From the NCBI GenBank assembly GCA_016293805.1, contig JAEDDI010000002.1, positions 18,653-82,652 on the forward strand: a stretch of 64,000 bases of DNA. The letters run 5' to 3'. The translations under genes were made by a program, and so were the position numbers. Source of the DNA: Bacillota bacterium (GTDB lineage: Bacteria > Bacillota > Clostridia > Peptostreptococcales > Anaerovoracaceae). Positions 1 through 59,685 of the stretch are shown here, piece after piece. Under the pieces are notes generated by a model. The model was given only the letters and a program-made list of their open reading frames with translations, ran no database searches and was not told the origin of the DNA. The first letter of the stretch is position 1. Every line of letters starts with the position of its first letter.

Positions 1-117
1 AAGAGCAGCACCCATTCTGCGGCAGATTCTGCGAAACGGAGAATCTGTTATCCCTGCAAGGGGCGCCAGAAGAAACGGTGAATCAAGCTTGAGCCCCGCT
101 ATTTCACATTTGTGCAT
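1..117 (-). CDS. tRNA-dihydrouridine synthase, N-terminal fragment (continues off the left edge)
   Basis: Own translation from ATG at 117: MHKCEIAGLKLDSPFLLAPLAGITDSPFRRICRRMGAAL. The LAPxAGxTDxPFR segment is typical of Dus N-termini. The start overlaps the coaX stop. Not in the ORF track because it is truncated. Confidence 0.6.
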   Translation of the reverse strand, partial: MHKCEIAGLKLDSPFLLAPLAGITDSPFRRICRRMGAAL

Positions 118-914
118 TTCTTTCTTTTTTCTTTCTTGTTCTTTTCGTATATTATCTCAAGACCTTCGAGTGTGAGCATCTTGTCGACATAGTCAATACA
201 TGCTGCTCCCTTGTCTATCAGTGTAGCAAGACCGCCTGTTGCGACAACTATAGGGTCTCTGCTGCACTCTACAGTCTCTTTAAGTTCTTTCTTCATCTTG
301 TTCACTACAAACTCTACCATTCCCATATGTCCGTACACAAGTCCGGACTGCATTGACTGAATGGTGTTTCTGCATATTGTATGTCCCGGCTCTTCCAGTT
401 CAACCTTAGGCAGTTTCGATGTCTTTTCGAAAAGAGCCTCAGATGAAATCTTAAGTCCGGGTGCTATTGTTCCTCCAAGGTATTCAGCCTTTTCGGATAC
501 AGCACAGAAAGTTGTAGCTGTACCAAAATCAATTATAATCAGCGGGCCTCCGTATTTTGCATATGCCGCAACAGCGTTTACAATTCTGTCTGCCCCGACC
601 TGCTTGGGATTATCGTATTTGATTATCAGACCGGTCTTAACCCCCGCCTCGATTACTATAGCCCGTCTGTTGAAATACTTTGTTGATAAATGCTGGAGTG
701 TGAACAGCATCGAAGGTACTACTGTCGATATTATTACATCCTCGATATCCGACACAGCAAGACCTTCGTAAATAAACAGCTGATTGATTATCATGCCGTA
801 TTCATCGGCACTCTTGGATGTATCGGTCTCAAGTCTCCAGTTGGTAAGGAGCTTGCCTTCATCAAACACACCAAGAACAATATTACTGTTTCCAACGTCA
901 AATGCCAGTAGCAT
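99..914 (-). CDS. coaX: type III pantothenate kinase
   Basis: 271 aa. N-terminus MLLAFDVGNSNIVLGVF plus IIIDFGTATT and ATGG motifs of the CoaX/ASKHA fold. AAGGAGA SD upstream. Confidence 0.9.
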   Translation of the reverse strand: MLLAFDVGNSNIVLGVFDEGKLLTNWRLETDTSKSADEYGMIINQLFIYEGLAVSDIEDVIISTVVPSMLFTLQHLSTKYFNRRAIVIEAGVKTGLIIKYDNPKQVGADRIVNAVAAYAKYGGPLIIIDFGTATTFCAVSEKAEYLGGTIAPGLKISSEALFEKTSKLPKVELEEPGHTICRNTIQSMQSGLVYGHMGMVEFVVNKMKKELKETVECSRDPIVVATGGLATLIDKGAACIDYVDKMLTLEGLEIIYEKNKKEKRKKCTNVK

Positions 915-960: not shown

Positions 961-989
961 ATTATACAGTACTTTATAATTCATGTCAA
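961..989 (-). promoter_or_regulatory. sigma-70-type promoter for coaX (TTGACA-N17-TATAAT)
   Basis: Minus strand reads TTGACA (989..984), a 17-nt spacer, then TATAAT (966..961). It lies just downstream of the preceding gene's terminator hairpin. Confidence 0.5.
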
Positions 990-1043
990 AAAAATCAGGA
1001 AGGAACCTTCCGGCCCTTCCTGTAAACTGTGCTGTATTTTAAA

Positions 1044-2345
1044 TTATTCGTAATCAGGGAATACTGATTCTGCAGCGATGTCAGTAAGTTTTTCAGTCCA
1101 TGTAACGCCTTCCTTGATTTCGATATCATATGTGATACCAAGGTCTTCAGCGTACTTAAGGTACTGAGTAACCTGTTCGTCGTTCATTTCGTCTGATGAA
1201 ATCAGTCCCTTCTGTGTAATAAGGTCGTTTACGAAAAGCTTAGTGAACATGAATGCGCCCTGTCCTGTAAGGTACATTTCACCAGTCATCTTTGCAAGTT
1301 CATATGATTCAACAAGTCCAGGTGCTGTAACGTGAAGATCAACCATTACATCCTTTCCGTCCTTCTTACCGTATGCTTCTACTACAAATGCGCCGCCGTC
1401 TGATACAAGACCTTCGTCAATGATTTCCTTGATTACTTCAGGATCCTTTGGAGCTGCAGGAGTATGAGCACGGATTACTTCGTGAGGAATAAATGTATGT
1501 CCGTTTACTGTTTCTTCTTCGTATGAAAGAAGTCCTGCTCTTGCAAGAGGTTCTGCAAATTCGATACCAACTCCGCCGTACTTGAAGTAAGCGTTCTTAC
1601 ATCCCTTGAAGTACTTGTCAGCATGGAATCCTACATATGTAGGCTCATCGTGTGAGTGCTCTACCATTCTAACAGGTTCGCCGTTTGTTTCAGGCCATGC
1701 TCTGTAGATAGGGTTTGAGAATGCAGGTGTTCTAAGGTGCTTTCCATCTTCAAATGCAAGTGCGTCTTCTGACATGTCAGCAAGTGCAACATCTGGTGAC
1801 CACCAGAAAGGAATGAATCTCTTAGCTTCAACGCCTTCGTATACCATCATGTTGATAGTATCGCATTCGTCAAGTTCCTGAACAGCTCTTCTTGCCATTA
1901 CGCACATAACTCCTGGAGCTGAACCTGTACCGATAAGTGCAGTTGCATTCTTCGCTGCAAATTCCTTACCGATAACCTTGTACATATAGTTAACTCCTGC
2001 AATCCAGCTGTGGTATTCATCAACGTCATCAACAAGTCCTTCGCATGCTGAAAGATCCTGATAGCAGATTCCAAGTTCCATAGCTGCCTTTAATACGTTT
2101 GTAAGAAGTTCAAGAGGCATAACACCTACGATAAGTTCACAGCCTTCTGCTGCCTTCTTGATTTCTTCTACCTTAGTGGCATCAACCTGCTTAGGTGTAC
2201 CCTTAGTCATAAGTCTGCATACTGCTTCAGCTGCATCCATACTGTAATCGGCACATATTACTTCTTCAATGTTAGGTTCCTGGTCGAGTTTTCTGCAGAT
2301 TGTAGAACCCTGTGCTCCGCATCCGCATACCATTACTTTCTTCAT
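1044..2345 (-). CDS. saccharopine dehydrogenase family NAD(P)-binding protein
   Basis: 433 aa. N-terminal Rossmann motif VMVCGCGAQGS and overall saccharopine/carboxynorspermidine dehydrogenase-like layout. GGAGGAAG SD. Substrate unknown. Confidence 0.65.
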   Translation of the reverse strand: MKKVMVCGCGAQGSTICRKLDQEPNIEEVICADYSMDAAEAVCRLMTKGTPKQVDATKVEEIKKAAEGCELIVGVMPLELLTNVLKAAMELGICYQDLSACEGLVDDVDEYHSWIAGVNYMYKVIGKEFAAKNATALIGTGSAPGVMCVMARRAVQELDECDTINMMVYEGVEAKRFIPFWWSPDVALADMSEDALAFEDGKHLRTPAFSNPIYRAWPETNGEPVRMVEHSHDEPTYVGFHADKYFKGCKNAYFKYGGVGIEFAEPLARAGLLSYEEETVNGHTFIPHEVIRAHTPAAPKDPEVIKEIIDEGLVSDGGAFVVEAYGKKDGKDVMVDLHVTAPGLVESYELAKMTGEMYLTGQGAFMFTKLFVNDLITQKGLISSDEMNDEQVTQYLKYAEDLGITYDIEIKEGVTWTEKLTDIAAESVFPDYE

Positions 2346-26163: not shown

Positions 26164-26175
26164 TTCTTCGGAATG

Positions 26176-26320
26176 AAGAATACGGGAGAGAGCACACCGT
26201 GCCGCCGAAGGAATAACACTCTCAGGCAAAAGTACCGTATTCCGACCAACTCTGGAGAGCATAGCACCGACGAATTAATTATTTCAGGTACCAGGACAGA
26301 GCTTCGTCTCTGTTTTTTTG
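26176..26320 (+). promoter_or_regulatory. tandem glycine riboswitch with intrinsic terminator
   Basis: Aptamer 1: GAAUACGG-GAGAG...GCCGCCGAAGGAAUAA...CUCUCAGGCAAAAGUACCGUAUUC, with P1 at 26178..26185 / 26235..26242. Aptamer 2: CUCUGGAGAG (26250..)...CACCGACGAA...UUUCAGGUACCAGGACAGAG (..26301). Terminator: ACAGAG-CUUCGU-CUCUGU plus U7 (26296..26319), which shares the P1 3' strand. Confidence 0.85.
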
Positions 26321-34137: not shown

Positions 34138-34426
34138 AACGTTTCTCCTCCTTAAGTGATTTTTTCTCTTTTGCTGCATTAATGCTGTAAGCCGGATGCA
34201 GCATCCGTAAGTTAGCCTTCGCCAATGTTATTGCAGGGTTTGACGAATGCAACACTGTTCCTACCCTTCAGAACTGTTTAATCACATTCCGTAGAGCACG
34301 GGACTAGGCTATAACATCCCGTGGTACCTATTTCCTGCATAACGTAGTGCTCTTGGCACTTAGGCTAGTCAACTAGGGCTGATAGAGTTTAATGCGCAGC
34401 ATTATTCTTCATACAAGCCCGCGACT
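34138..34426 (-). ncRNA. candidate omega-RNA (guide + scaffold) of IscB. Boundaries are unknown.
   Basis: 289 nt with no ORF of 60 aa or more on either strand, directly 5' of iscB, which is the canonical omega-RNA position. Hand-found helices: GCUGCGCAUUAA (34400..34389) with UUAAUGCAGC (34182..34173); AGAGCAC (34353..34347) with GUGCUCU (34299..34293); CGGAUGC/GCAUCCG around 34192..34206; AGGGU/ACCCU. Confidence 0.6.
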
Positions 34427-34969
34427 TCAGTCGTGGGTAATTGACTTTCCAGCTGCCTCTTCAAATTTTTCTCTTGTGATTCCGTAGCTGTTCAGTTTTC
34501 TCAGGAAAGCCTGAGCATTGCCGTATCCTATTCCAAGATATGACCCTGCTGCCTGACGTTTTTCCCTGGAACCCGGGCCGGTCAGTCCTGTACGTACCAG
34601 ATCATTCATGGTAAATTCATCTTCCTGCACTGCAACCCTTGTACATACTTTCGAAAGAGCCTCGACTATAGCCGCAGGCTCCGCATTTTCAATGCCTATA
34701 TCTCCGTCTTTTATGGCCCTGTCCCTTGTGAGAAAAGCCTCCTTCGCATCCGGATATCTTTTCAGAACCCTTTTTCTTATCTCAAGACCGGCTCTGTCCG
34801 GATCTGTGAATATGATAATACCTTTTGACCTGTAGGCCATATCCATTAAATCCCATGTCTCTTTTCTGATACCGTAGCCGTGAGTTTCGATAGTCTCTGC
34901 TTCACAGGCTCTTTTTACTGCCGCTGTATCATCTCTTCCCTCGACTACAATCACTTCTTTAATTATCAT
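34427..34969 (-). CDS. rnmV: ribonuclease M5 (Toprim domain)
   Basis: IKEVIVVEGRDDTAAVKRA Toprim motif and DPDRAG. Start refined to ATG 34969 (MIIKEV...). Confidence 0.85.
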   Translation of the reverse strand: MIIKEVIVVEGRDDTAAVKRACEAETIETHGYGIRKETWDLMDMAYRSKGIIIFTDPDRAGLEIRKRVLKRYPDAKEAFLTRDRAIKDGDIGIENAEPAAIVEALSKVCTRVAVQEDEFTMNDLVRTGLTGPGSREKRQAAGSYLGIGYGNAQAFLRKLNSYGITREKFEEAAGKSITHD

Positions 34970-49055: not shown

Positions 49056-49712
49056 TCATTTAACGACATGAGCTCTTATCCTCTGATATATGCGCTCAAA
49101 TACCTTGATGATACATCCCACAGCAACTGCTGCGAATATACTTCCCTCTCTTACACCTTCAAGCCTTCCCAGACCTGCAAGACATATTACTGCAGCCGCG
49201 GCTATCATAATGACATCTGCAGCTATCTTAATATTCGCATATTTCTTTCCTGTAACAGTGGCTATGGCTCTGTTCAGAGCCTCTCCCGGAAGCATGGCAA
49301 CTCCGCCTCTGAACTGAAGCCAGATGCCGAATCCGAGAACCACGCAGGAGATGAGCATGTACAATACCTGGTCAAGGTATGTGTCGACAGAAAGATTCCT
49401 TATGACATACACCCACATGTCAGTAAGGTATCCGTAGGCAAAAGCAAGGACAGTCTGTATTCCAATTTCAAGTTTGCTGCACTTTCCGCGAAGAATAATC
49501 ACCTGGGCCGTAATCTGCATAATGCTCAGCACATTCAGCCATGTTCCAAACGACAGACACGTCAAAAGGAGCGAAACAGAATACGGAACAGAAGCAACCG
49601 GTGTTGTCCCAAGACCTGCCTTTGTTGAGAAGGCAACACCCAGAGCAGCTATGGCAAGACCGGTCAGGAATACAAGATATCTTCGAATCAGATTGTCTTT
49701 TCTTTCTTCCAT
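49056..49712 (-). CDS. YczE/YitT-like membrane protein
   Basis: Polytopic. GVAFSTKAGLGTTPV motif. Start refined to ATG 49712 (MEERKD...). Confidence 0.5.
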   Translation of the reverse strand: MEERKDNLIRRYLVFLTGLAIAALGVAFSTKAGLGTTPVASVPYSVSLLLTCLSFGTWLNVLSIMQITAQVIILRGKCSKLEIGIQTVLAFAYGYLTDMWVYVIRNLSVDTYLDQVLYMLISCVVLGFGIWLQFRGGVAMLPGEALNRAIATVTGKKYANIKIAADVIMIAAAAVICLAGLGRLEGVREGSIFAAVAVGCIIKVFERIYQRIRAHVVK

Positions 49713-49730
49713 ATATCCTTCCGGAAACAA

Positions 49731-50657
49731 TTAAAACACCGGTGTAATACTGTTTATTTCATAAGGTGTGCTCTGGTACACGATGTAGTTGAGCCAGTTC
49801 TGGTATATCAGGTTCGCATGAGACCTCCATGTAACCACCGGTTCTTTTGTGTCATCATCATCCGGGAAATAGTTTTTCGGAACCTTTATATCCAGCCCGA
49901 GAGCCTTGTCTCTGAAGTATTCATTGGCAAGTGTCTCTCCGTCATACTCGGAGTGTCCCATCACGAACACCTGTCTTCCTCTATCTGTCATGCATACATA
50001 AACCCCCGCTTCTTCAGATGAGGCAAGTATTTTGAGTTTTTTGCAGTTCTCTATATCTTTTCTGTCAACAGTGGTGTTTCTCGAGTGGGGAACCATAAAT
50101 CTGTCATCAAATCCTCTCATGAGTATTGATTTCTTCCTGTCGCACTTATGCTCAAAAACTCCGAACATCTTTTCAGGAAGCGTCACCTTGGGAATTCCAA
50201 AATGGTAGTATAGGCCTGCCTGTGCGCCCCAGCAGATATGAAAAGTGCTGTACACATGGGTTCTTGACCACTCCATTATTGCACACAATTCCTTCCAGTA
50301 TTCAACTTCCTCAAATTCGAGAAGTTCAACAGGAGCCCCCGTTATTATCATACCGTCAAAGAATCTGTCTTTTACGTCATCAAAAGTCGAATAGAATTTA
50401 AGCATGTGATCCCTTGAAACATTCTTCGCCTCATGGGTTTTCATCTGCATGAGTTCTAGTTCCACCTGAAGCGGAGTATTGCCCAGAACTCTTGCAAGCT
50501 GAGTTTCTGTTGCAATTTTTGTCGGCATCAGATTGAGCACAAGAATCTCAAGCGGACGGATTTCCTGTGAACCCGCTCTGCTGTTATCCATTACAAAAAT
50601 ATTCTCTTCTGTCAGCGTTTTGGTTGCCGGCAGTTTATCCGGAATAATTATCGGCAT
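49731..50657 (-). CDS. metA: homoserine O-acyltransferase (MetA family)
   Basis: 308 aa. [12 protein letters not shown]-terminus, LNLMP, and [10 protein letters not shown] with the active-site Cys. Confidence 0.9.
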
Positions 50658-50682: not shown

Positions 50683-51957
50683 TTATTCCAATGCCTGTGC
50701 GATATCTGCAATCAGGTCTTCAGCGTCCTCAAGACCGCATGAAAGTCGTACAAGATCAGGGCCGACTCCCGCAGCCACAAGCTCTTCATCATTCATCTGA
50801 CGATGTGTTGAGCTTGCAGGATGAAGGCAGCATGTTCTCGCATCGGCAACATGTGTCTCAATTGCAGCAATTCTTAGTTTGGCCATGAATTCTTCAGCTG
50901 CCGCTCTTCCTCCCTTTACTCCAAAACTTACTACTCCGCATGAACCTTCCGGAAGATACTTCTGTGCAAGCTCATAGTTTTCATCCCCTTCAAGACCGCA
51001 GTATTTGACCCATGCAATGCGGTCATGTCCTTCAAGGAATCTTGCAACAGCAAGACCATTGTCCGCATGTCTCCTCATTCTTACATGAAGGCTTTCAAGT
51101 CCCAGATTAAGCAGATATGCGTTCTGAGGGGACTGGATTGAACCGAAATCTCTCATCAGCTGTACTGTCGCCTTGGTAATATATGCTCCTTCTTTTCCGA
51201 ATCTTTCTGCATATGTTACTCCATGATAACTATCATCAGGTTCACACAGCCCCGGATACTTGTCAGCATGACTTAGCCAGTCGAATCTTCCTGAATCAAC
51301 TATGCATCCGCCGACTCCCGCGCCGTGTCCGTCCATGTACTTTGTTGTAGAGTGAGTAACGATATCCGCACCCCATTCAAACGGTCTGCAGTGAACAGGT
51401 GTTGCAAATGTATTATCGATTATAAGGGGGACTCCGTGTCTGTGGGCAGCATCAGCAAACCTTTCGATATCAAGCACTGTAAGTGCAGGGTTTGCAATCG
51501 TCTCACCAAAGACTGCCTTTGTGTTCGGTCTGAATGCAGCATCAAGCTCCTCATCTGTGGCATGTGGAGAAACAAATGTGAATTCAATTCCCATTTTCTT
51601 CATTGTTACAGCGAAAAGATTGTATGTTCCGCCGTAGATTGTTGATGATGAGATGATGTGATCCCCGCATGAAGCGATATTGAACACAGCATAAAAATTC
51701 GCAGCCTGACCTGAAGATGTCAGCATTGCAGCCGTACCTCCTTCAAGCGATGCAATCTTGGCTGCCACATAATCGTTTGTTGGGTTCTGAAGCCTTGTAT
51801 AGAAATACCCTGATGCTTCAAGATCAAACAGTTTACCCATCTCCTGGCTTGTACTGTATTTAAAAGTAGTGCTCTGTATAATCGGAATCTGTCTTGGTTC
51901 TCCGTTGCCCGGAGTATACCCGTCCTGAACACATTTTGTTCCTATTCCTTTATTCAT
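50683..51957 (-). CDS. metY: O-acetylhomoserine aminocarboxypropyltransferase (sulfhydrylase)
   Basis: 424 aa. Cys/Met-metabolism PLP enzyme with the HSTTKYMDGHG lysine motif. Confidence 0.9.
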   Translation of the reverse strand: MNKGIGTKCVQDGYTPGNGEPRQIPIIQSTTFKYSTSQEMGKLFDLEASGYFYTRLQNPTNDYVAAKIASLEGGTAAMLTSSGQAANFYAVFNIASCGDHIISSSTIYGGTYNLFAVTMKKMGIEFTFVSPHATDEELDAAFRPNTKAVFGETIANPALTVLDIERFADAAHRHGVPLIIDNTFATPVHCRPFEWGADIVTHSTTKYMDGHGAGVGGCIVDSGRFDWLSHADKYPGLCEPDDSYHGVTYAERFGKEGAYITKATVQLMRDFGSIQSPQNAYLLNLGLESLHVRMRRHADNGLAVARFLEGHDRIAWVKYCGLEGDENYELAQKYLPEGSCGVVSFGVKGGRAAAEEFMAKLRIAAIETHVADARTCCLHPASSTHRQMNDEELVAAGVGPDLVRLSCGLEDAEDLIADIAQALE

Positions 51958-51971
51958 ATATATTTCCTCCT

Positions 51972-52011
51972 AAAAAAATTAAGGCGACCTGGTCACGCCA
52001 AAATCGCCTTT
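51972..52011 (-). terminator. leader (attenuator) terminator immediately upstream of the metY SD
   Basis: Minus strand: AAGGCGA (52010..52004), loop, UCGCCUU (51987..51981), then AAUUUUUUU, followed directly by the AGGAGG SD of metY. Confidence 0.7.
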
Positions 52012-52032
52012 AGTAATCTTAACAGTTTAAGA

Positions 52033-52098
52033 TTAAACCAAAGGCGTGCTGCACATCATCATAGTCATATTAAATTTTCCAAATGATGAAAAACGCAT
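52033..52098 (-). CDS. 21-aa Met-run leader peptide MRFSSFGKFNMTMMMCSTPLV (candidate attenuation sensor)
   Basis: ATG 52098, preceded by GGAGGA at 6-nt spacing. Four ATG codons fall within codons 11 to 15, followed by TGC. The 3' end and stop codon are embedded in the 5' arm of the antiterminator helix. Confidence 0.5.
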   Translation of the reverse strand: MRFSSFGKFNMTMMMCSTPLV

Positions 52099-52136
52099 GT
52101 CCTTCCTCCAGTATTCACATAGCTATATCAAGATTA

Positions 52137-52165
52137 ATTGTATTCTTCCTACATATTTTTGTCAA
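52137..52165 (-). promoter_or_regulatory. near-consensus promoter of the metY-metA leader (TTGACA-N17-TACAAT)
   Basis: Minus strand: TTGACA at 52165..52160 and TACAAT at 52142..52137. Confidence 0.6.
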
Positions 52166-52174
52166 CAAAAACAT

Positions 52175-52217
52175 CAAAAACAACAAAAGGAGACGGAAAA
52201 TGGTAAATTCCGCCTCC
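52175..52217 (-). terminator. rho-independent terminator of the giant surface-protein gene
   Basis: GGAGGCGG / CCGTCTCC stem (52217..52189, one mismatch), followed by a long T-rich run on the minus strand. Confidence 0.75.
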
Positions 52218-52223
52218 AGAATG

Positions 52224-55200
52224 TCAGTCTTCTTTTCTCATTTCAGCAACAGCAATGAATATGAGCAGAATCATCATAAGAGCAAACAGTGCCGGCCATT
52301 TGAAAACAGATATATCTATTCCTGTCTTCACATGTGCTGATACTCCCTGGGGCACAGCTCCCTTAACAGATATGCTCTGTTTCTCATCATTGATATCATG
52401 ATGCGCTGCAACCTTGTATCTGTTATCTATATACAGTGTTTCAAACACAACAAACTCTCTGCCTCTCATTCTGTCTTCATCGAACGGAAACTCAACCGTC
52501 ACCTCACCGTCTGACTCTTCCGGTATGAAGAAACAATATCCCTTCACCTTCTGCCCATCTATAAGAAACGGTTTTCCCGAAGCCTTGTCCATCAGAGTTC
52601 CCCATACACAGTATTCTCTTCCCGGTATAAGATTAGTGTAGCTTACTCTGTCTGTTATCTTTCCTCTCTCAAAGCCGGCACTTGTCTTTATCATCGGAAG
52701 TCTCACTGTCTGCTCGGCACACGAAATGTCCTCATGCGATGCAATAAGAACGCCATCACAGTAAATTCTTTCAAATACTGCTACACTTCTGCCCTCTAAA
52801 CCTTCTGCATCCATATCAAAGGTTATTTCAATGCTGCCTGATGATTCTTCAGCAGTAAATGTCTTCTCCGACCAGGTTCCATAGATTTCTTTTCCTGTTT
52901 TGCAGTCATGAAGTTCTCCCTTCACTGTGTACTCTCTTCCCTTTTCAAGTCCGCTGTACAACACATTGTCACGAACTGTGAGCCTGCCGGCGAATGCTAT
53001 CTTCTCCCCTGTAAGCGCATCCGATGCAGATGTACCTATTTCAGGAAAGGATACAGTCTGCATTGCGTCACCACTGTCAGTATGTGACGCTATAAGTCTG
53101 CCGTCCAGATAGATTCTCTCAAAGATAACAGCTTCTCTGCCCTTCATATCTTCCGCGTCGAATGTATATTCAATTTCAACGCTGCCCGATGCATCTGCAG
53201 TAAATGCTTTTTTCGCAGAGGCAAGAACCCTGCCGCAGTCTTTATCAATAACCTCTCCTTCTGCAGTATACGTTCTGCCCGCATCAAACCCCGAATAGGT
53301 GATAACATCCGTTACCGTAACACTTCCTGATGCATACGCTGTTCTGTTGCCCGGATGAATATAGTATGCGGAAGTTCTGATCTCAGGCGCAGTTGACGGT
53401 GTAACAGGTATATCTTTTCGTCTGTTGACAACAGGTTTCACATCAGGACCGTCGCCTGCATTAATAAGTACCGGGACTGCATCAGATCCTGTGCTCTGTC
53501 TTTCCAGCACCTGGGTTTTGCTGCTCCTTACTTCGCATTCTGCTCCTCCTGCTTCACCTTTCGGACTTACATATTCATCCAGTGTATAATACGATGACAT
53601 TTCAAGAATTCCATCTTCTGAAAAATCAAAAACTGTATATGCTCCGTCCTGCAATGTGATTTTTTCTCCGCCTTTTATCTTCCTGCCGGCTGTTTCAAGG
53701 AAGTAACTGTCTTCTTCTCTTGATATGACTGCTGTAATCGTCCTTTCCTCAGAAAGTTCCAGTTTCACTTCAGTCATTTTATCATCCCCGGCAGATGCTT
53801 TAAGTGAAGCACTGCAGTAATATCCTGAAGATTTAGGCGCATATGAAATTCTTCTGCCGTCAAACTGACCCTCAAATCCATAGTCTGAAACAGAAACATT
53901 CAGAGTTTTCCCTCCCGGCATTGTGATTTTTCTGTTTCCTTCTATTACAGTTGTCACAACTGCAGCATCAGCATATCGTTTCACGGTAATTTCCTCATCT
54001 GCAAACTCACGGTCAAGATCTGTACCCTCAAATGAAGGCATCGGATATCTGTCTGACACTCTGAATGTCAGTACAGCCTTTCCCTTCTCCTTCATGTATA
54101 GACTGCCATCTATTCCGTCTTTTTCAGAATATATTCTGACAGCTCCTTCAGGCCTGTCTTCTTCTCCTGCCCTGAACCAGAACTTTTCATCAGAAAGTTC
54201 ATATCCTGTGCCTGCTGTTATCTCAGAAACATAGTATATTCCTTCAGGAAGTCTGTATTTTTCAGATGTATTTCCGTTCTTGTCAAATGAAATCACACCG
54301 ACAAGACTTCCTTCCTTCGCATTCTTCAGTTTTTCTCCCGTATATATACCAAACACAGCACTGCTTCCCGGCATGAAACTGCCGCTGTTTTCGAACACTT
54401 TTTTCATATCTATCTGAACATCGCAGTACCTGTTTCTGAATACCGCATTCTTCCATACAAGAGGTGTATGCATATTCACATATGACAGCGTAATTTCCTG
54501 TGACTTTTCCTCCGGTACGTATCCGGCAGGACTTTCCAGTTCCCTTACAATATATGTTCCAAGCGGCAGAGGTTCCGATACAGCTCTTCCGTCATCTCCG
54601 GAGGTTATAACTGATACCAGATCAGATACGGCATACCTCTGGGTTCTGTAAATATTTGAAACTTCAATCACTCCAGAATTCACGCCTTCATCTGTCGTTA
54701 TCTGATAGATATCCGCTCTGTACCCATCTCCGTATACCACACTGCACGGTGCATCACTCCCGTTTTTTGTCAGTATCTCTATTGTGTAATATACGTCCTT
54801 GTCTGCTTCTCCTCTGTGCTGATATGACCTTACGATGAGGTTATCACTTTCATACGCTGTATGTTTTCTTCTGTCAGATGACAGTTTTGAATACCAGTCG
54901 AGTATATGCTCTTCTATATTCCCCTCTCCATCTATCCTCGATGCTCTTATCTGGGGTGTTACAATATCATAATCGGCAGAAACAGCGTCAAGAGGTACAG
55001 TAACCAGCGCTTTTGTCCATTCTCCCATTGTTGATATTTCTGTTTTCACACCGTCTTCACCCTTAAGGTATACAGGCACTTCCCTTTCTTCGGATATGAA
55101 AACATCTTTTCCGTCTTTCCTTTCATGAACATAGCCTGCACCTGTCACAATTTCAGGTCTTGTTTCGCTCTGTCCTGAGATTTCTGTCACTGCCTTTTGC

Positions 55201-58200
55201 CCATCAGCGGCAGATAATATATCAAATCCGTCGAACGACATCGAAAATCCGTAGTCATTATCACTTCTCTGCGTATACCTTATATCAAATATCTCGACTT
55301 TCGCGTTTTCAAAATCCCCTTCACCTGTACATTCGTTCCATATGAAAGAATCTCCGTCGGTGCATAAAACTATGTATTCACCGCCCTTTTCCATCAGAAC
55401 ATACGGCGTGCTGTCCCATGCCTCCTGTGTCCATCCTTCTGACTGTTTCATTGCGACATACCTGTCCGAAGGAGAAACAGCATTTCCAAAGGAATCACTG
55501 TCAACCCACTGAGGGTTTTCTTCATATGACAGTTTCTCTCCGTTTCTTGTGCATGATACTGTAAGAACTCTGTACCCTCCGCCGGACTGTATCAGCGCAA
55601 AGTCTCCTGCAGCAGCATCTTCCGCAAGGACTGCACCGTACTTCCATTCGAAAGATGTTTTTGTCACACCGTCTCTTGTCTCCCTCTCAAAATCCGCTTC
55701 TTTCAGAACATAGTTTTCAAAGTATGACGGCAGATATCTTTTCTCTGACAGAGAACTAAAATCTCTTACGTTTCCGTCCCAGTCCTCTTCTTCCGCACCA
55801 TCGGCATGAAAAACATATGCTCTGTATCCGTAGTCCAGTTCGTTTCCCTTTGATACAGCATTGCCTCCTTCAAGTTCTCTGCCCGACGTGTAAGATGAAA
55901 GAGGATTCCCCGAATCTCCTCCCATCGTATACGGAGTCGAATCATCAACTGTAACTTCAGGAGTTCCCCCTCTTATCGTTGCCGACGCTTTTCTGCCTGT
56001 TACAGTCTTAATTATCCTTACAGATGTAAGGTTGACTCCTCCCGGTGTGTACGACATTGTACACACTACATCGTATCTGTATCTGTATAGGCTGTCTTCT
56101 GTCTCATATGTGTAATTCAGCTTCGAAGGACCTGCACAAGGTGTCACATACATGCTCATGTTCCGGTTTTCTTCAGATACCTTCCTTTCAAGCAGTCTCC
56201 ACAATCTGCCTCCCGATTCAGTTTCAGCACTTCCCGTCTCGTATACGCTGCCGGTAAATTCTCTCCCCAGTATATCTTTAATTGCCTCATCTTCACTTGA
56301 AGAATGTGTCCTTGCCGATATCGGAATATCAATCTTCTCATCAGTTTCGCTGCTGTAAAACATAGGCCCCTGCGAACCGTCATTGAGGAGAATATCTTCC
56401 CCTGCAAATATTCCGAATACGGCGCCGGCAAGATTCGCCGCTTTTTCAAATACTGCCTTAAGATAACTTATACCCGTCTTATCGTCGACAGCCTCTTCAA
56501 ATCCTGTAAATTCCTCGCCCTGCTTCAGTATCTCAATACGTCCCCTTACCTGACTGTTTGTAAGCTTCACCGTATGATACACCTTTGAATACGGATAGTC
56601 TTCTTCACTGTACGAAGGATCCGCCGGACTCCTGTTTCCATCGCAGTCTATCATCTGTCCAAAGTTTCCGTTTTCATGGACAGGTTCATTCCCGACTTCA
56701 AACGTATAAATATTCAGAACTTCATCAACTTCCCTGAATCCCTGAAAAGTATTTGAATCAATAGAGTAATATGGTACCAGGTCCTCATATTCCGAACCCG
56801 GTATTCCTCCGTAGACTGCATTGTTCTCGCTCTCCTCGGAATCATATCTTTTATCTGAGGGATTGCCGTTCTCATCATATGTTCCGAGGAAGTATCCTTC
56901 AGGAACACAGAATTCCTCCACCTGATATATTCCATAAGGCAGATCATACCTGATTACAAACTCTCCCGCATCGTTTAATACAAATTCATCAGAACCGTCA
57001 TGTGATGTAATAGAACTGCCGTTTGGCAGAAGTCTGCCGTATCCTGCGGCACTTTCAGGATTATCAAGAGAAGGATCTCCCATGTACCTTACACGTACCC
57101 TGGTACCCTTCATAGGAACTTTTTTTCCGGTCTCACTGTTCACCTTCTCAAGTTTGATCCTGTTCTCCTGAAGTTTATCGTAAACACCATAGACATATAT
57201 ATCATCATACTTTCCTTCTCCACTGTATCCATATTTCTCATAAGTGCTGCATTCAGACACTGTGCATGTGAATTTCTCAAGAACATAATTATCATCGTCG
57301 GCTATGACCTCTTCTATCATGTATTCTCCATAAGGCACACCTTTTACAAGAAGTTTGCCGTTCTTTCCCACCTTCATCGGAGTGTCTTCACACGAGACTC
57401 CTCCTCCGGTCTTTGACACTCTGTAAACAGCAGTCATATCGTCAAGCACTCCATCATATACATATCTTAATGCTGCATGTCCTTCGTGTCCTCCGGATTT
57501 AAGATATACCTTCCACTGTGACTTTTCTGAAAGCAGAGTGCCTGATGACTGCTTGTCCCTGAAGACAGAAGTATTTTCGTTCTCCTTAAGTATCTCAATT
57601 TTTCCGGTATGAATATCGTTTCTGAAAACTTCTCCCCGGCCTGCACCTGAATAGCTGAAAGTGCCTCCTGAAAACGAGAAAAAGGATCCTTCCTCATCAG
57701 CAAATTCATCATTTTCCCCCTTAAGCTGCGCAGTCCCGGAAGGTGTATCAACTTTCATTGTGATCTTAGTGTCACTCCATGATACATCACTTAATGCACA
57801 TTCTCTGACATCCTCTGCATGGGCTTCATATGATACAGTAAATTTCCTCACTGTGTTTCCTTCCGGTTCCATGTACATTCCTCCTGGAACCGATGTTTCT
57901 CTTATCTCATAATCGACAGAAAATGACCACTTCGCATCTGTCGGCATAACTGTACATTCATGTATCACCTGACCGTCAGCATCTGTCTCTGTGTGAATCC
58001 TCTGACCGTATTCACACCCCTGTTCAAGAAATGCGCTTCCATCATCGAAAGGTCTGTCCTCAAGAGAGGCTGTGCTTCCCGATTCATCAAGTGTAACAGA
58101 ATCCACTGCCTCCCCGTTCCTGTACAGGGTATATCCTGCAGCCAGACTGCCGTCCCCTCTTGCTGTCCCGGTATCGTTATCAAATCCTCCGTACAGGTCC

Positions 58201-59486
58201 TCCTTGGAAACATCAAATGAAAACTCCGGAACTGCCGGCATTACTCTCTCTCCTTCATTATCCTGCTGTCCGCTCCTGCCGTTTGTTACAGTGATAAAGT
58301 ATGTGGCTCTTGACTGATATGATGAGCCTGATATCAGCGACTGGTCGTGAATGTTTCCGGCCTTTGTGTCCCTGAACCACAGCTGCATGCCCTGAACCCT
58401 GCTTACTCCCTCTATTGAGTTTTGTATCTCATAGCATCTGCTTCCATCTGCTGTAGCCTGAGATGGTGTCATATCCGGGGAATCTGAAGGTGCCTCCCAT
58501 TTTACAGTAAATTTTCTGCCGGTTTTGGTAACAGTCAGTTTTCCCTTTATTCCTTCAGGATTCTTCACAGTTACATTTCCGTAGATGTCTCTCTTTCCGG
58601 CCTCATACATTCTTACTGTATCAGGATTTCCCGCAACCTCTGCCTGCCAGGTCCCATCTTCCTGCTGCGACAAAACAACAGGCGATGCCTTTGCCGAAGT
58701 TTCCTTTTCAAATGACTTCTTCACCGGCCTTGAATCACGGTTTCTTATCATGCTGATCATGAATCTGTAGATATCTTCTGCCGGTTTTCCCTTAATTATG
58801 TTATAGCAGTGATGAATATCTATATTTCTGCCGTTCCCATATTTCAGAACCGGATGTTTAGATGACCCCGCATAATTCAGATTGTCGCTTCCTGAAGCAG
58901 ACAGTCTGTACTCCTGTGTAATTTCCCAGATTAGTATCTGAGTAGCCATATACCAGTCATCCCTGTTATATGACCCTCTGTCTCTCTTCGCATATATCGA
59001 GTCGAAGAAACCTATGGTACTCAGTGTTTTATCTGGAGCATCTGACTCATAACCATAAAGTACCGTATACCTGAGATTCTGCTGCTCACTCTTTTTCATT
59101 CCTGCAAAAGCGGGATGAGATGAAGCTGATTTAGAATAGTAGGTTGGTCCGTTGTCCGATAGTCCCAGCCCGTGTTCAAAACAGTATACCCGGTATTTTT
59201 CTCCCCCCTGTTTGAGAAGATATGCGTGCTTACTGCCTTCTACCTCATAGGAATACACTATATGTTTCTTCCCGTCATCTCCAAAGTAGTAAATCTGCAT
59301 CAGTCCTCCCCCTGTCGGTCCAAGCGATGCTGTATCGGAAGAAAAGTATCGGCATCCGTTTCCTCCCGTAAGCACCGAGCCTTCTGAGTATGTTGCGCTG
59401 CCTCTGACAAGGCCTGCAAATGCCTCTGCAGGTATCACAGCCGTCAGCATGACTATACACAGTATCAGTGATATTTTCTTTTTCAT
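52224..59486 (-). CDS. giant cell-surface adhesin: signal peptide, thioester domain, multiple Cna-B/SpaA-like Ig folds, three Thr-Gln ester-bond (VaFE) repeats, C-terminal TM anchor
   Basis: Start refined to ATG 59486 (MKKKISLILCIVMLTAVIPAEAFA), about 2,420 aa. TED signature YRVYCFEHG (Cys codon 59183..59181) and ATQILIWE (Gln codon 58940..58938). Repeated GxIEILK-type Cna-B starts. C-terminal repeats with VxFE and HxDxxDxxQ. Hydrophobic tail followed by EMRKED. Confidence 0.85.
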   Translation of the reverse strand: MKKKISLILCIVMLTAVIPAEAFAGLVRGSATYSEGSVLTGGNGCRYFSSDTASLGPTGGGLMQIYYFGDDGKKHIVYSYEVEGSKHAYLLKQGGEKYRVYCFEHGLGLSDNGPTYYSKSASSHPAFAGMKKSEQQNLRYTVLYGYESDAPDKTLSTIGFFDSIYAKRDRGSYNRDDWYMATQILIWEITQEYRLSASGSDNLNYAGSSKHPVLKYGNGRNIDIHHCYNIIKGKPAEDIYRFMISMIRNRDSRPVKKSFEKETSAKASPVVLSQQEDGTWQAEVAGNPDTVRMYEAGKRDIYGNVTVKNPEGIKGKLTVTKTGRKFTVKWEAPSDSPDMTPSQATADGSRCYEIQNSIEGVSRVQGMQLWFRDTKAGNIHDQSLISGSSYQSRATYFITVTNGRSGQQDNEGERVMPAVPEFSFDVSKEDLYGGFDNDTGTARGDGSLAAGYTLYRNGEAVDSVTLDESGSTASLEDRPFDDGSAFLEQGCEYGQRIHTETDADGQVIHECTVMPTDAKWSFSVDYEIRETSVPGGMYMEPEGNTVRKFTVSYEAHAEDVRECALSDVSWSDTKITMKVDTPSGTAQLKGENDEFADEEGSFFSFSGGTFSYSGAGRGEVFRNDIHTGKIEILKENENTSVFRDKQSSGTLLSEKSQWKVYLKSGGHEGHAALRYVYDGVLDDMTAVYRVSKTGGGVSCEDTPMKVGKNGKLLVKGVPYGEYMIEEVIADDDNYVLEKFTCTVSECSTYEKYGYSGEGKYDDIYVYGVYDKLQENRIKLEKVNSETGKKVPMKGTRVRVRYMGDPSLDNPESAAGYGRLLPNGSSITSHDGSDEFVLNDAGEFVIRYDLPYGIYQVEEFCVPEGYFLGTYDENGNPSDKRYDSEESENNAVYGGIPGSEYEDLVPYYSIDSNTFQGFREVDEVLNIYTFEVGNEPVHENGNFGQMIDCDGNRSPADPSYSEEDYPYSKVYHTVKLTNSQVRGRIEILKQGEEFTGFEEAVDDKTGISYLKAVFEKAANLAGAVFGIFAGEDILLNDGSQGPMFYSSETDEKIDIPISARTHSSSEDEAIKDILGREFTGSVYETGSAETESGGRLWRLLERKVSEENRNMSMYVTPCAGPSKLNYTYETEDSLYRYRYDVVCTMSYTPGGVNLTSVRIIKTVTGRKASATIRGGTPEVTVDDSTPYTMGGDSGNPLSSYTSGRELEGGNAVSKGNELDYGYRAYVFHADGAEEEDWDGNVRDFSSLSEKRYLPSYFENYVLKEADFERETRDGVTKTSFEWKYGAVLAEDAAAGDFALIQSGGGYRVLTVSCTRNGEKLSYEENPQWVDSDSFGNAVSPSDRYVAMKQSEGWTQEAWDSTPYVLMEKGGEYIVLCTDGDSFIWNECTGEGDFENAKVEIFDIRYTQRSDNDYGFSMSFDGFDILSAADGQKAVTEISGQSETRPEIVTGAGYVHERKDGKDVFISEEREVPVYLKGEDGVKTEISTMGEWTKALVTVPLDAVSADYDIVTPQIRASRIDGEGNIEEHILDWYSKLSSDRRKHTAYESDNLIVRSYQHRGEADKDVYYTIEILTKNGSDAPCSVVYGDGYRADIYQITTDEGVNSGVIEVSNIYRTQRYAVSDLVSVITSGDDGRAVSEPLPLGTYIVRELESPAGYVPEEKSQEITLSYVNMHTPLVWKNAVFRNRYCDVQIDMKKVFENSGSFMPGSSAVFGIYTGEKLKNAKEGSLVGVISFDKNGNTSEKYRLPEGIYYVSEITAGTGYELSDEKFWFRAGEEDRPEGAVRIYSEKDGIDGSLYMKEKGKAVLTFRVSDRYPMPSFEGTDLDREFADEEITVKRYADAAVVTTVIEGNRKITMPGGKTLNVSVSDYGFEGQFDGRRISYAPKSSGYYCSASLKASAGDDKMTEVKLELSEERTITAVISREEDSYFLETAGRKIKGGEKITLQDGAYTVFDFSEDGILEMSSYYTLDEYVSPKGEAGGAECEVRSSKTQVLERQSTGSDAVPVLINAGDGPDVKPVVNRRKDIPVTPSTAPEIRTSAYYIHPGNRTAYASGSVTVTDVITYSGFDAGRTYTAEGEVIDKDCGRVLASAKKAFTADASGSVEIEYTFDAEDMKGREAVIFERIYLDGRLIASHTDSGDAMQTVSFPEIGTSASDALTGEKIAFAGRLTVRDNVLYSGLEKGREYTVKGELHDCKTGKEIYGTWSEKTFTAEESSGSIEITFDMDAEGLEGRSVAVFERIYCDGVLIASHEDISCAEQTVRLPMIKTSAGFERGKITDRVSYTNLIPGREYCVWGTLMDKASGKPFLIDGQKVKGYCFFIPEESDGEVTVEFPFDEDRMRGREFVVFETLYIDNRYKVAAHHDINDEKQSISVKGAVPQGVSAHVKTGIDISVFKWPALFALMMILLIFIAVAEMRKED
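52365..53390 (-). repeat. three tandem ~114-aa ester-bond domain repeats within the adhesin gene
   Basis: Units at 53390..53049, 53048..52701 and 52700..52365. Each starts with (E/M)I(R/G/K)TSA and ends AVIFERIY...SHTDSGDAMQTVS, VAVFERIY...SHEDISCAEQTVR or FVVFETLY...AHHDINDEKQSISV. Confidence 0.65.
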
Positions 59487-59685
59487 TTCTATCTGTTTAC
59501 CCCTTTCATCAGAAATGCGTATCCCCCGAACCGCAATTCCATTTTTTACCATATTCTACTTTACATCCACTGTACTGTCAACCATTATTTTCCATTTATT
59601 CCTTATTGCATCTATGTAAATGCATAAATAATATTGAATCGTTTACATCTTTTTTCCCCGCAGCTCCTCGCGATTACGCAAAAGC

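Follow-up and report, generated by a model that had tools for sequence, protein, structure and literature searches.

A putative methionine-codon leader-peptide attenuator upstream of metY-metA in uncultured gut Clostridia

The metY-metA operon in a 64,000-nucleotide stretch of DNA from an uncultured Anaerovoracaceae bacterium of the Bacillota (contig JAEDDI010000002.1 of assembly GCA_016293805.1, positions 18,653 to 82,652; the whole stretch is called the window here) is preceded by a leader that is probably a ribosome-mediated transcription attenuator sensing the supply of Met-tRNA. The operon makes homocysteine from homoserine by direct sulfhydrylation. The leader contains a short open reading frame (ORF) with a run of Met codons, and the end of the ORF forms one arm of an antiterminator hairpin that shares a strand with the terminator in front of metY. 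The attenuation reading, which had been put forward in a first-pass annotation of the bare DNA letters, is supported by the conservation of this architecture, by the mutually exclusive hairpins and by folding calculations in which a ribosome occludes part of the leader. We infer that the ORF is translated, that ribosomes stall at its AUG codons under methionine limitation, and that their position affects termination and thereby regulates the operon.

Layout of the leader and the proposed switch

The features of the leader and of the two genes behind it are the following:

52165..52137, minus strand: sigma-70-type promoter TTGACA-17-TACAAT, 11/12 consensus matches, the top site in the 3 kb scanned
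52109..52104, minus strand: leader Shine-Dalgarno (SD) sequence GGAGGA, anti-SD duplex of −9.3 kcal/mol
52098..52033, minus strand: leader ORF encoding MRFSSFGKFNMTMMMCSTPLV, 21 codons and a stop codon
52068..52054, minus strand: regulatory Met codons ATGACTATGATGATG (AUG ACU AUG AUG AUG; Met codons 11, 13, 14 and 15)
52053..52048, minus strand: spacer of two codons, UGC AGC, from the Met run to the 5′ arm of the antiterminator
52046..52005, minus strand: antiterminator hairpin, outer stem CGCCUUUGGU/ACUAAAGGCG, inner stem AAUCUUAA/UUAAGAUU, loop ACUG
52010..51981, minus strand: intrinsic terminator AAGGCGAUUU.GG / CCAGGUCGCCUU, followed by AA and U7 (51978..51972), −14.5 kcal/mol
51970..51966, minus strand: metY SD sequence GGAGG, abutted by the terminator U tract
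51957..50683, minus strand: metY, O-acetylhomoserine sulfhydrylase (TIGR01326, 562.9 bits, cutoff 495)
50657..49731, minus strand: metA, homoserine O-acetyltransferase of the acetyl type (NF047918, 495.5 bits, cutoff 460.5)

The first-pass annotation had placed the promoter, ORF, Met codons and hairpins at these positions of the minus strand, and all of its coordinates were reproduced. The naming of the genes as metY and metA is borne out by the two profile matches, both of which are above their cutoffs. The annotation had also described GGAGGA six nucleotides upstream of the start codon. The SD sequence is present, but the distance of 6 nt is obtained by counting from the GGAGG core, whereas GGAGGA itself is separated from the ATG by 5 nt.

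Four of the leader codons 11–15 encode Met. The run ATGACTATGATGATG occurs once in the window, compared to 0.02 occurrences expected from dinucleotide-preserving shuffles. The antiterminator 5′ arm is made by leader codons 18–21 together with the stop codon, and the complete hairpin has a folding energy of −19.9 kcal/mol (z = −8.0), which was equaled by none of 200 shuffled sequences. The hexanucleotide AAGGCG (52010..52005) is common to the antiterminator 3′ arm and the terminator 5′ arm. Therefore, the two hairpins cannot coexist. The earlier description of an ORF end that doubles as the antiterminator 5′ arm, and of a 3′ arm shared with a terminator whose U7 tract lies directly before the metY SD sequence, thus proved correct, with AAGGCG as the shared part.

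Based on this layout, the mechanism of attenuation can be proposed. Transcription would begin at the listed promoter, and a ribosome would load onto the 21-codon ORF. With an ample supply of charged elongator Met-tRNA, this ribosome would pass AUG-x-AUG-AUG-AUG and reach the stop codon just past the outer 5′ arm. The ribosome at the stop codon would cover this arm, so that AAGGCG would pair downstream, the terminator with its U7 tract would form, and the polymerase would stop before metY. When Met-tRNA is scarce, the ribosome would stall at the AUG run, two codons upstream of the arm, and leave the arm accessible. The antiterminator, being the earlier of the two hairpins to be transcribed and no less stable than the terminator, could then sequester the terminator 5′ arm, resulting in read-through into metY-metA.

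Conservation of the leader among MetY lineages

Nine other metY loci, from about six additional MetY lineages, have homologous leaders upstream of the gene. Among the 80 matches listed when GTDB species representatives were scanned with MetY, a short ORF containing a Met run precedes metY only at locus L029, from an Anaerovoracaceae metagenome-assembled genome (MAG). The leader of L029 aligns with that of the window and has a 23-nt identical block, ATGATGATGTGCAGCACGCCTTT, in common with it. The leader was also present upstream of metY for the MetY homologs P0014 (loci L100 and L101), P0015 (L102), P0105 (L103–L106), P0131 (L108), P0125 (L110 and L111), P0136 (L114 and L115), and P0154 (L116). 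It was not found upstream of metY on the contigs encoding the homologs P0046, P0032 and P0122; L112 and L117 are metY loci that lack it. Homolog P0099 was left out of the count, its contig L113 having only 30 nt 5′ of metY. A nucleotide profile of the leader core, searched with nhmmer, recovered exactly the listed loci with E-values of 1e-18 to 1e-24 and no others among the loci examined; the window contains a single copy. The resulting sample comprises ten aligned sequences (alignment A1) from about six or seven lineages; some of the sequences were gathered by MetY similarity, and the Met run was never used as a selection criterion for the fetched loci.

The peptides encoded by these leaders are:

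Window and L100: MRFSSFGKFNMTMMMCSTPLV
L101: MRFSSFGKINMTMMMCSTPLV
L102: MRYSSIRQINMTMMMRYTPLV
L029: MRNKAYVKLNMVMMMCSTPLA
L103: MYSRNTGKMNMVMMMCSYAFGQIL
L108: MYSYNTGKFNMVMMMCSDAFGQIL
L110 (leader at 31..184): MKVLRMRFVMMMPNTVFGHFQNR
L114 (leader at 971..1122): MNKMFTSCGMMMRNTVFGSF
L116 (leader at 1014..1167): MKKMNLRGMMMRNTVFGLF

The last three peptides, of the form ...GMMMRNTVFG..., define a subfamily, and the seven other leaders are referred to as window-type.

The first-pass annotation had suggested that an alignment of related leaders would reveal whether the element is maintained, and the SD sequence, the start codon, the Met run and the alternative helices are kept in all of the homologous leaders found. 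A promoter TTGACA-17/18-TAnnnT lies 28–38 nt upstream of the leader ATG in all nine leaders with enough upstream sequence, and an SD sequence precedes the ATG by 5–7 nt in all ten. The open frame has 19–24 codons in all homologs. The run AUGAUGAUG is invariant in the ten sequences of alignment A1, and most leaders have one or two extra AUG codons upstream of it. The spacer from the run to the arm is exactly two codons long in all homologs, with varying identity (CS, RY, RN, PN). The antiterminator 5′ arm AC(C)G(Y)CUUURG is kept, with the stop codon 2–16 nt past the arm end, as are the shared strand AAGGCG(R) and the terminator 3′ arm CG(Y)CUU with its U run. The arm cores CG.CUUU.G, AAGGCG and CG.CUU are invariant, the segment GAUUUUGG is conserved, and the remainder of the peptide is variable. 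The MetY proteins of the lineages with the leader are only 83–91% identical, and the architecture is kept while the surrounding non-coding sequence has diverged.

The pattern of substitutions distinguishes the Met run from the rest of the peptide. All four differences between the ORFs of the window and L100 are synonymous third-position changes, whereas the untranslated stretch from the promoter to the SD sequence is heavily diverged. Non-Met residues change freely between distant leader pairs, as would be expected if the peptide product of the leader does not matter. In L103 and L108, a 1-nt insertion between the run and the arm replaces the C-terminal CSTPLV with CSYAFGQIL and leaves ACGCCUUUGG intact. 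Since the insertion alters the peptide and not the nucleotides, the constraint on the Met run acts through the reading frame set by the start codon, and that on the ACGCCUUUGG block through the RNA.

Both stems are maintained in alignment A1. Of the alignment cells in the outer antiterminator stem, 97.1% are paired, compared to 32–61% when the partner strand is slid; the corresponding values for the terminator stem are 97.0% and 26–58%. RNAalifold recovered both stems independently. The terminator stem contains two pairs with compensatory changes, A-U>G-C and U-A>A-U. The inner antiterminator helix differs between lineages and always pairs at the equivalent place: it is AAUCUUAA/UUAAGAUU in the window, AAUCUUU/AAAGAUU in L100, AAUCA/UGAUU in L102, GA-CUUU/AAAG-UC in L029, an unrelated AUUCUC.../...GAGUUU in L103 and L108, and UUCUGAAG/CUUCAGAA in L114, with related helices in L110 and L116. 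The folding energies range from −15.7 to −26.9 kcal/mol for the antiterminator and from −14.5 to −24.7 kcal/mol for the terminator, and track each other lineage by lineage (antiterminator/terminator: window −19.9/−14.5, L103 −19.8/−18.3, L110 −26.5/−23.9, L114 −26.9/−24.7, L116 −23.5/−24.7, and L029 −16.2/−18.9 kcal/mol). Such matched predicted stabilities are as expected of a balanced switch.

The leader is almost invariant within the species of the window (a pig and poultry gut Anaerovoracaceae MAG, GCA_016292905.1). Changes in the ORF and hairpin region occur only in L098, with one synonymous AGC>AGT and one loop change, and a few indels and substitutions lie outside this region. The carriers found so far are uncultured gut Clostridia only, belonging to Anaerovoracaceae where named. 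Loci L001–L009 and L107 from Lentihominibacter and relatives, which encode the closest MetY proteins among the matches listed (84–90% identical), have no leader. In these loci, metY directly follows the upstream gene and has a TAGTGTATAAT promoter, and a conserved AAATAGTGTATAAT overlaps the stop codon of the upstream gene. Since the closest MetY relatives lack the leader, it was gained or lost recently within Anaerovoracaceae. A scan of JGI metagenomes with the structure-only pattern CGCCTTTRG..CTAAAGGCGA..TCGCC gave nine matches, all of them unrelated chance or repeat sequences; the pattern was too strict, because it would miss L100, L102, L103 and the L110/L114/L116 subfamily. A scan of viral contigs with the family pattern gave no matches.

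Two additional candidate features of the leader were rejected. A joint sensor of Met and Cys is not indicated, because the Cys codon that follows the run is replaced in other lineages (RY, RN and PN), and a UCAUCAU:AUGAUGA hairpin is not a functional element, because the pairing is unconserved beyond the closest relatives of the window.

Ribosome position and competing explanations

The effect of the ribosome was modeled by folding each leader as far as the terminator 3′ arm, with the nucleotides that a ribosome would cover, to 12 nt beyond its A-site codon, barred from pairing. Placing the ribosome at the stop codon gave the terminator in all ten leaders, and placing its A site on the first AUG of the run gave the antiterminator in each of the seven window-type leaders. 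In the untranslated leader, the minimum free energy (MFE) structure is the antiterminator, and thus non-terminating, in seven of ten cases, including the window. A trp-like pairing of a segment 1 with segment 2 is unsupported in the window: the best upstream partner of the arm reaches −6.7 kcal/mol, 33% of shuffles equal it, and pairing with the leader SD sequence does not exceed chance. The L110/L114/L116 subfamily differs in this respect. The region of its leader SD sequence, AAAGGCGGU, nearly repeats the shared strand that serves as the terminator 5′ arm, and could form a duplex with the antiterminator 5′ arm at −11.3 to −12.8 kcal/mol. According to these models, the subfamily has a trp-like 1:2/2:3/3:4 layout with a fourth segment, unlike the three segments of the window.

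Several observations weigh against attenuation by a translating ribosome. A ribosome with the third AUG in its A site covers the beginning of the arm, and the MFE structure of the window then flips to the terminator. Therefore, the model needs a stall at the first or second regulatory codon. For the same reason, the two-codon spacer places the run as near to the arm as possible without occlusion at first- and second-AUG stalls. In the L110/L114/L116 subfamily, the MFE structure keeps the terminator in every case, even with the ribosome at the run; because the terminator is so stable, these leaders need a kinetic co-transcriptional argument, in which the antiterminator is transcribed first. The hairpin core is almost invariant, as expected of a strand that must meet two pairings and, on one side, a reading frame, and this near-invariance makes classical covariation support for the outer antiterminator stem thin. 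The stem has one-sided G-U/A-U changes and no double compensatory changes, so that its support is conservation and the turnover of the inner helix rather than classical covariation. The U tract is weak in L029 alone (UUUUCAAUUAUU). All carriers are uncultured MAGs or metagenome contigs, and the evidence is drawn from sequence. Methionine starvation limits the initiator tRNA too, and translation of the leader may therefore drop. In Firmicutes such as B. subtilis, transcription is of the runaway type, in which the polymerase outpaces the ribosomes (PMC13323073). Attenuation would then probably need a pause of the polymerase; none was identified.

An explanation that dispenses with translation would make the leader an undescribed riboswitch or a protein- or tRNA-binding element, with AUGAUGAUG as an RNA recognition motif and the ORF incidental. 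We consider it improbable. The usual controls of such genes in Firmicutes are S-boxes and T-boxes, and T-boxes precede orthologous metY genes at L013 and L023, where they served as positive controls in one scan (RF00230, 116 and 110 bits). However, no Rfam model scores on the leader of the window even at E<=10. The first-pass annotation had found neither an S-box nor a T-box by eye, and the searches agree with it. At the gathering threshold, Rfam 15 places no family in the met leader of the window, and at E<=10 over 51900..52300 the only matches are four snoRNA and lncRNA noise hits far below thresholds. No match to S-adenosylmethionine (SAM) riboswitches (SAM-I/S-box, II–VI, SAM/SAH, SMK) or to the T-box RF00230 was obtained in the window leader at E<=10 or in eight homologous leaders, and the Rfam amino-acid leaders (Trp, His, Leu, Thr, leu/phe) gave no match in the window leader at E<=10. 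The eight homologous leaders had no match to any Rfam family. Moreover, the leaders share no conserved structured aptamer: the sequence from the promoter to the run is poorly conserved except for the SD sequence, the ATG and the open frame, which are present in ten of ten leaders. The invariance of AUGAUGAUG cannot by itself separate coding from RNA constraint, because the motif has no synonymous alternatives. In MFE and centroid folds, the run of the window can pair with UCAUCAU from codons 4–6, but L029, L103, L108 and the L110/L114/L116 subfamily lack this partner. The synonymous third-position substitutions between close relatives and the stop codon, which always lies in or just past the antiterminator 5′ arm, also argue for translation. 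In favor of attenuation, the T-boxes of L013 and L023 make tRNA charging an established input for metY in related Clostridia.

Two further explanations are, in our judgment, still less probable and about equal to each other. A nascent peptide could arrest its ribosome in the manner of TnaC or SpeFL, with the MMM peptide in the tunnel sensing free Met or SAM. The full identity of the N-terminal peptide between the window and L100, despite four nucleotide changes, and the constant distance of ten codons from the start to the run in all seven window-type leaders would fit such a peptide. Nevertheless, beyond the closest relatives only the Met run is conserved, and the C-terminus is frameshifted in L103 and L108 and different in L110/L114/L116, whereas known arrest peptides need specific conserved residues near the peptidyl-transferase center (TnaC, PMC8429421). 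The sign of the response is also wrong, because arrest at the run by Met or SAM would free the antiterminator and induce biosynthesis amid product abundance. Alternatively, the leader could be constitutive, with a partial terminator and either a chance ORF that has no regulatory role or a small peptide that is functional in itself. Short ORFs abound (128 of at least 20 amino acids in 9 kb), but the ATGNNNATGATGATG pattern is expected only 0.02 times per window, and a chance arrangement is at odds with an architecture kept across MetY lineages that are 83–91% identical and whose flanking non-coding sequence has diverged. The hairpins are mutually exclusive and energy-matched in all lineages, and the peptide is not conserved in sequence as a protein with its own function would be.

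Within the attenuation reading, the dual role of Met may have shaped the wiring. A three-segment, window-type leader would adopt the antiterminator by default when untranslated. Therefore, both the loss of initiation for lack of fMet-tRNA and a stall at the AUG run for lack of Met-tRNA would switch the operon on. If true, this default-ON wiring would avoid the 'superattenuation' trap of the four-segment trp design, and the L110/L114/L116 leaders, in which a segment-1 copy overlaps the leader SD sequence, would be a natural experiment on the design choice. This whole reading, in which the leader is the founding example of a family of Met-specific leader-peptide attenuators with wiring adapted to Met as both initiator and elongator, is a speculation held with less than even confidence.

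Known regulators and neighboring elements

Gram-positive bacteria provide the textbook example of methionine genes controlled at the RNA level, through SAM riboswitches and T-boxes; Proteobacteria use protein repressors for this purpose. Attenuation by a leader peptide is known for Trp, His, Leu, Thr, Phe and Ile/Val and, in another form, for Cys, and a conserved Met-codon attenuator would close the gap for Met. The first-pass annotation knew of no described class of Met leader peptides, and neither Rfam 15 nor the literature that could be searched yielded an attenuator of this kind for Met, although absence there is no proof that one was never noted. The attenuation logic itself is known; apparently new here are the Met specificity, the sequence family and the Clostridia host.

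The leader resembles trpL, hisL, leuL, thrL, pheL and ilvL in having a short ORF that is led by an SD sequence and rich in codons for the end product. As in the classical leaders of Proteobacteria, a terminator precedes the first gene, an antiterminator shares a strand with it, and the position of the ribosome would decide between them (for the classical leaders, PMC1183508, PMC3082878). It differs from the classical leaders in its AUG regulatory codons, in its host from the Clostridia class of Firmicutes, and in the lack of sequence similarity. Met is also the initiator, so that starvation affects ribosome loading on the leader, unlike in those systems. In contrast to trp, the window leader has three segments, and a 1:2 anti-antiterminator or pause hairpin is unsupported, although this segment is not universal among attenuators.

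Ribosome-mediated leaders are rare in Firmicutes and often replace T-boxes (PMC2965389). The Leu/Ile-rich attenuator peptides of ilv-leu in S. aureus and Listeria (PMC5794164, PMC5864092) and the hisS/hisZ His leader of bacilli (PMC2965389) are similar cases: both are ribosome-mediated attenuators of Gram-positive amino-acid genes, in a role usually filled by T-boxes and riboswitches, and both stand in for a T-box that orthologous genes have elsewhere. The amino acid, the genes and the sequence family all differ from those of the ilv-leu and hisS/hisZ leaders. The mycobacterial polycysteine ORFs of cys operons (bioRxiv 10.1101/834739; PMC1262725) also combine a run of sulfur amino-acid codons with sulfur amino-acid biosynthesis; however, they are leaderless, use Cys codons and have no terminator/antiterminator pair, and Rho or translational mechanisms have been proposed for them. 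No RNA element was reported for methionine operons in Actinobacteria (PMC1262725). The 'met leader' of S. aureus is a T-box (metICFE-mdh, PMC3771891), which is similar in its Met-tRNA charging input and in the choice between terminator and antiterminator before met genes. Unlike T-boxes and S-boxes, which bind tRNA or SAM directly, the proposed attenuator would sense through the translating ribosome.

The control of metY in related gut Clostridia appears to be diverse, and here too the putative attenuator takes the place of a T-box that orthologous genes carry. The specifier of the T-boxes at L013 and L023 is likely the AUG within a shared CCUAUGGCU, as read by eye. The metY leaders of L067 and L078 also look T-box-like by eye (AAUUUGAGUGGUACCGCGG; shared CCUAUGGCU, likely AUG specifier) and are below the Rfam gathering score. 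Loci L019, L027, L060 and L080 have promoter-proximal, hairpin-rich metY leaders ending in U runs approximately 150–250 nt upstream; they contain no Met-run ORF and have no Rfam match at the gathering threshold, and may represent further unclassified metY regulators. If the attenuator is confirmed, related gut Clostridia would differ in whether metY is under T-box, leader-peptide or leaderless control, the gene switching from one mode to another. The element would also add a rare ribosome-mediated attenuator of Firmicutes, which bears on usable transcription-translation coupling in these bacteria. The signature AUGAUGAUG, a two-codon spacer, and then ACGCCUUUGG...AAGGCG...CGCCUU would help to recognize unannotated regulatory mini-ORFs in gut metagenomes.

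The met leader is a separate transcription unit, because the giant gene upstream of it ends at 52224 with its own hairpin and U run. This gene is a 2442-amino-acid ORF (52224..59552, minus strand) with matches to TED (thioester), SpaA and TQ domains in other samples, and its product looks like a giant surface adhesin. Its terminator (52217..52176, minus strand; hairpin GGAGGCGGAA/UUCCGUCUCC and U run) insulates the met promoter. Downstream, a gene for a DUF6198-family membrane protein (49056..49730, minus strand) adjoins metA almost without a gap, as it does in L100 and L101; the gene after metA in L102 and L103 is not this DUF6198-family neighbor. The DUF6198-family gene may be the third gene of the attenuated operon, possibly a transporter. 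In L095 and L104, metagenome contigs encoding identical MetY, metA is uncalled or only a 61-amino-acid fragment, which could be an assembly artefact or a strain pseudogene.

Elsewhere in the window, the Rfam 15 scan of the entire stretch detected just two RNAs: a single glycine riboswitch aptamer (RF00504, 55.3 bits) at 26173..26247 on the plus strand, and a HEARO RNA (RF02033) at 34207..34445 on the minus strand, which scored 147.7 bits compared to the gathering score of 83. HEARO is the RNA associated with ORFs of HNH/IscB-type endonucleases, and the match therefore suggests that the genome contains an IscB-like mobile element.

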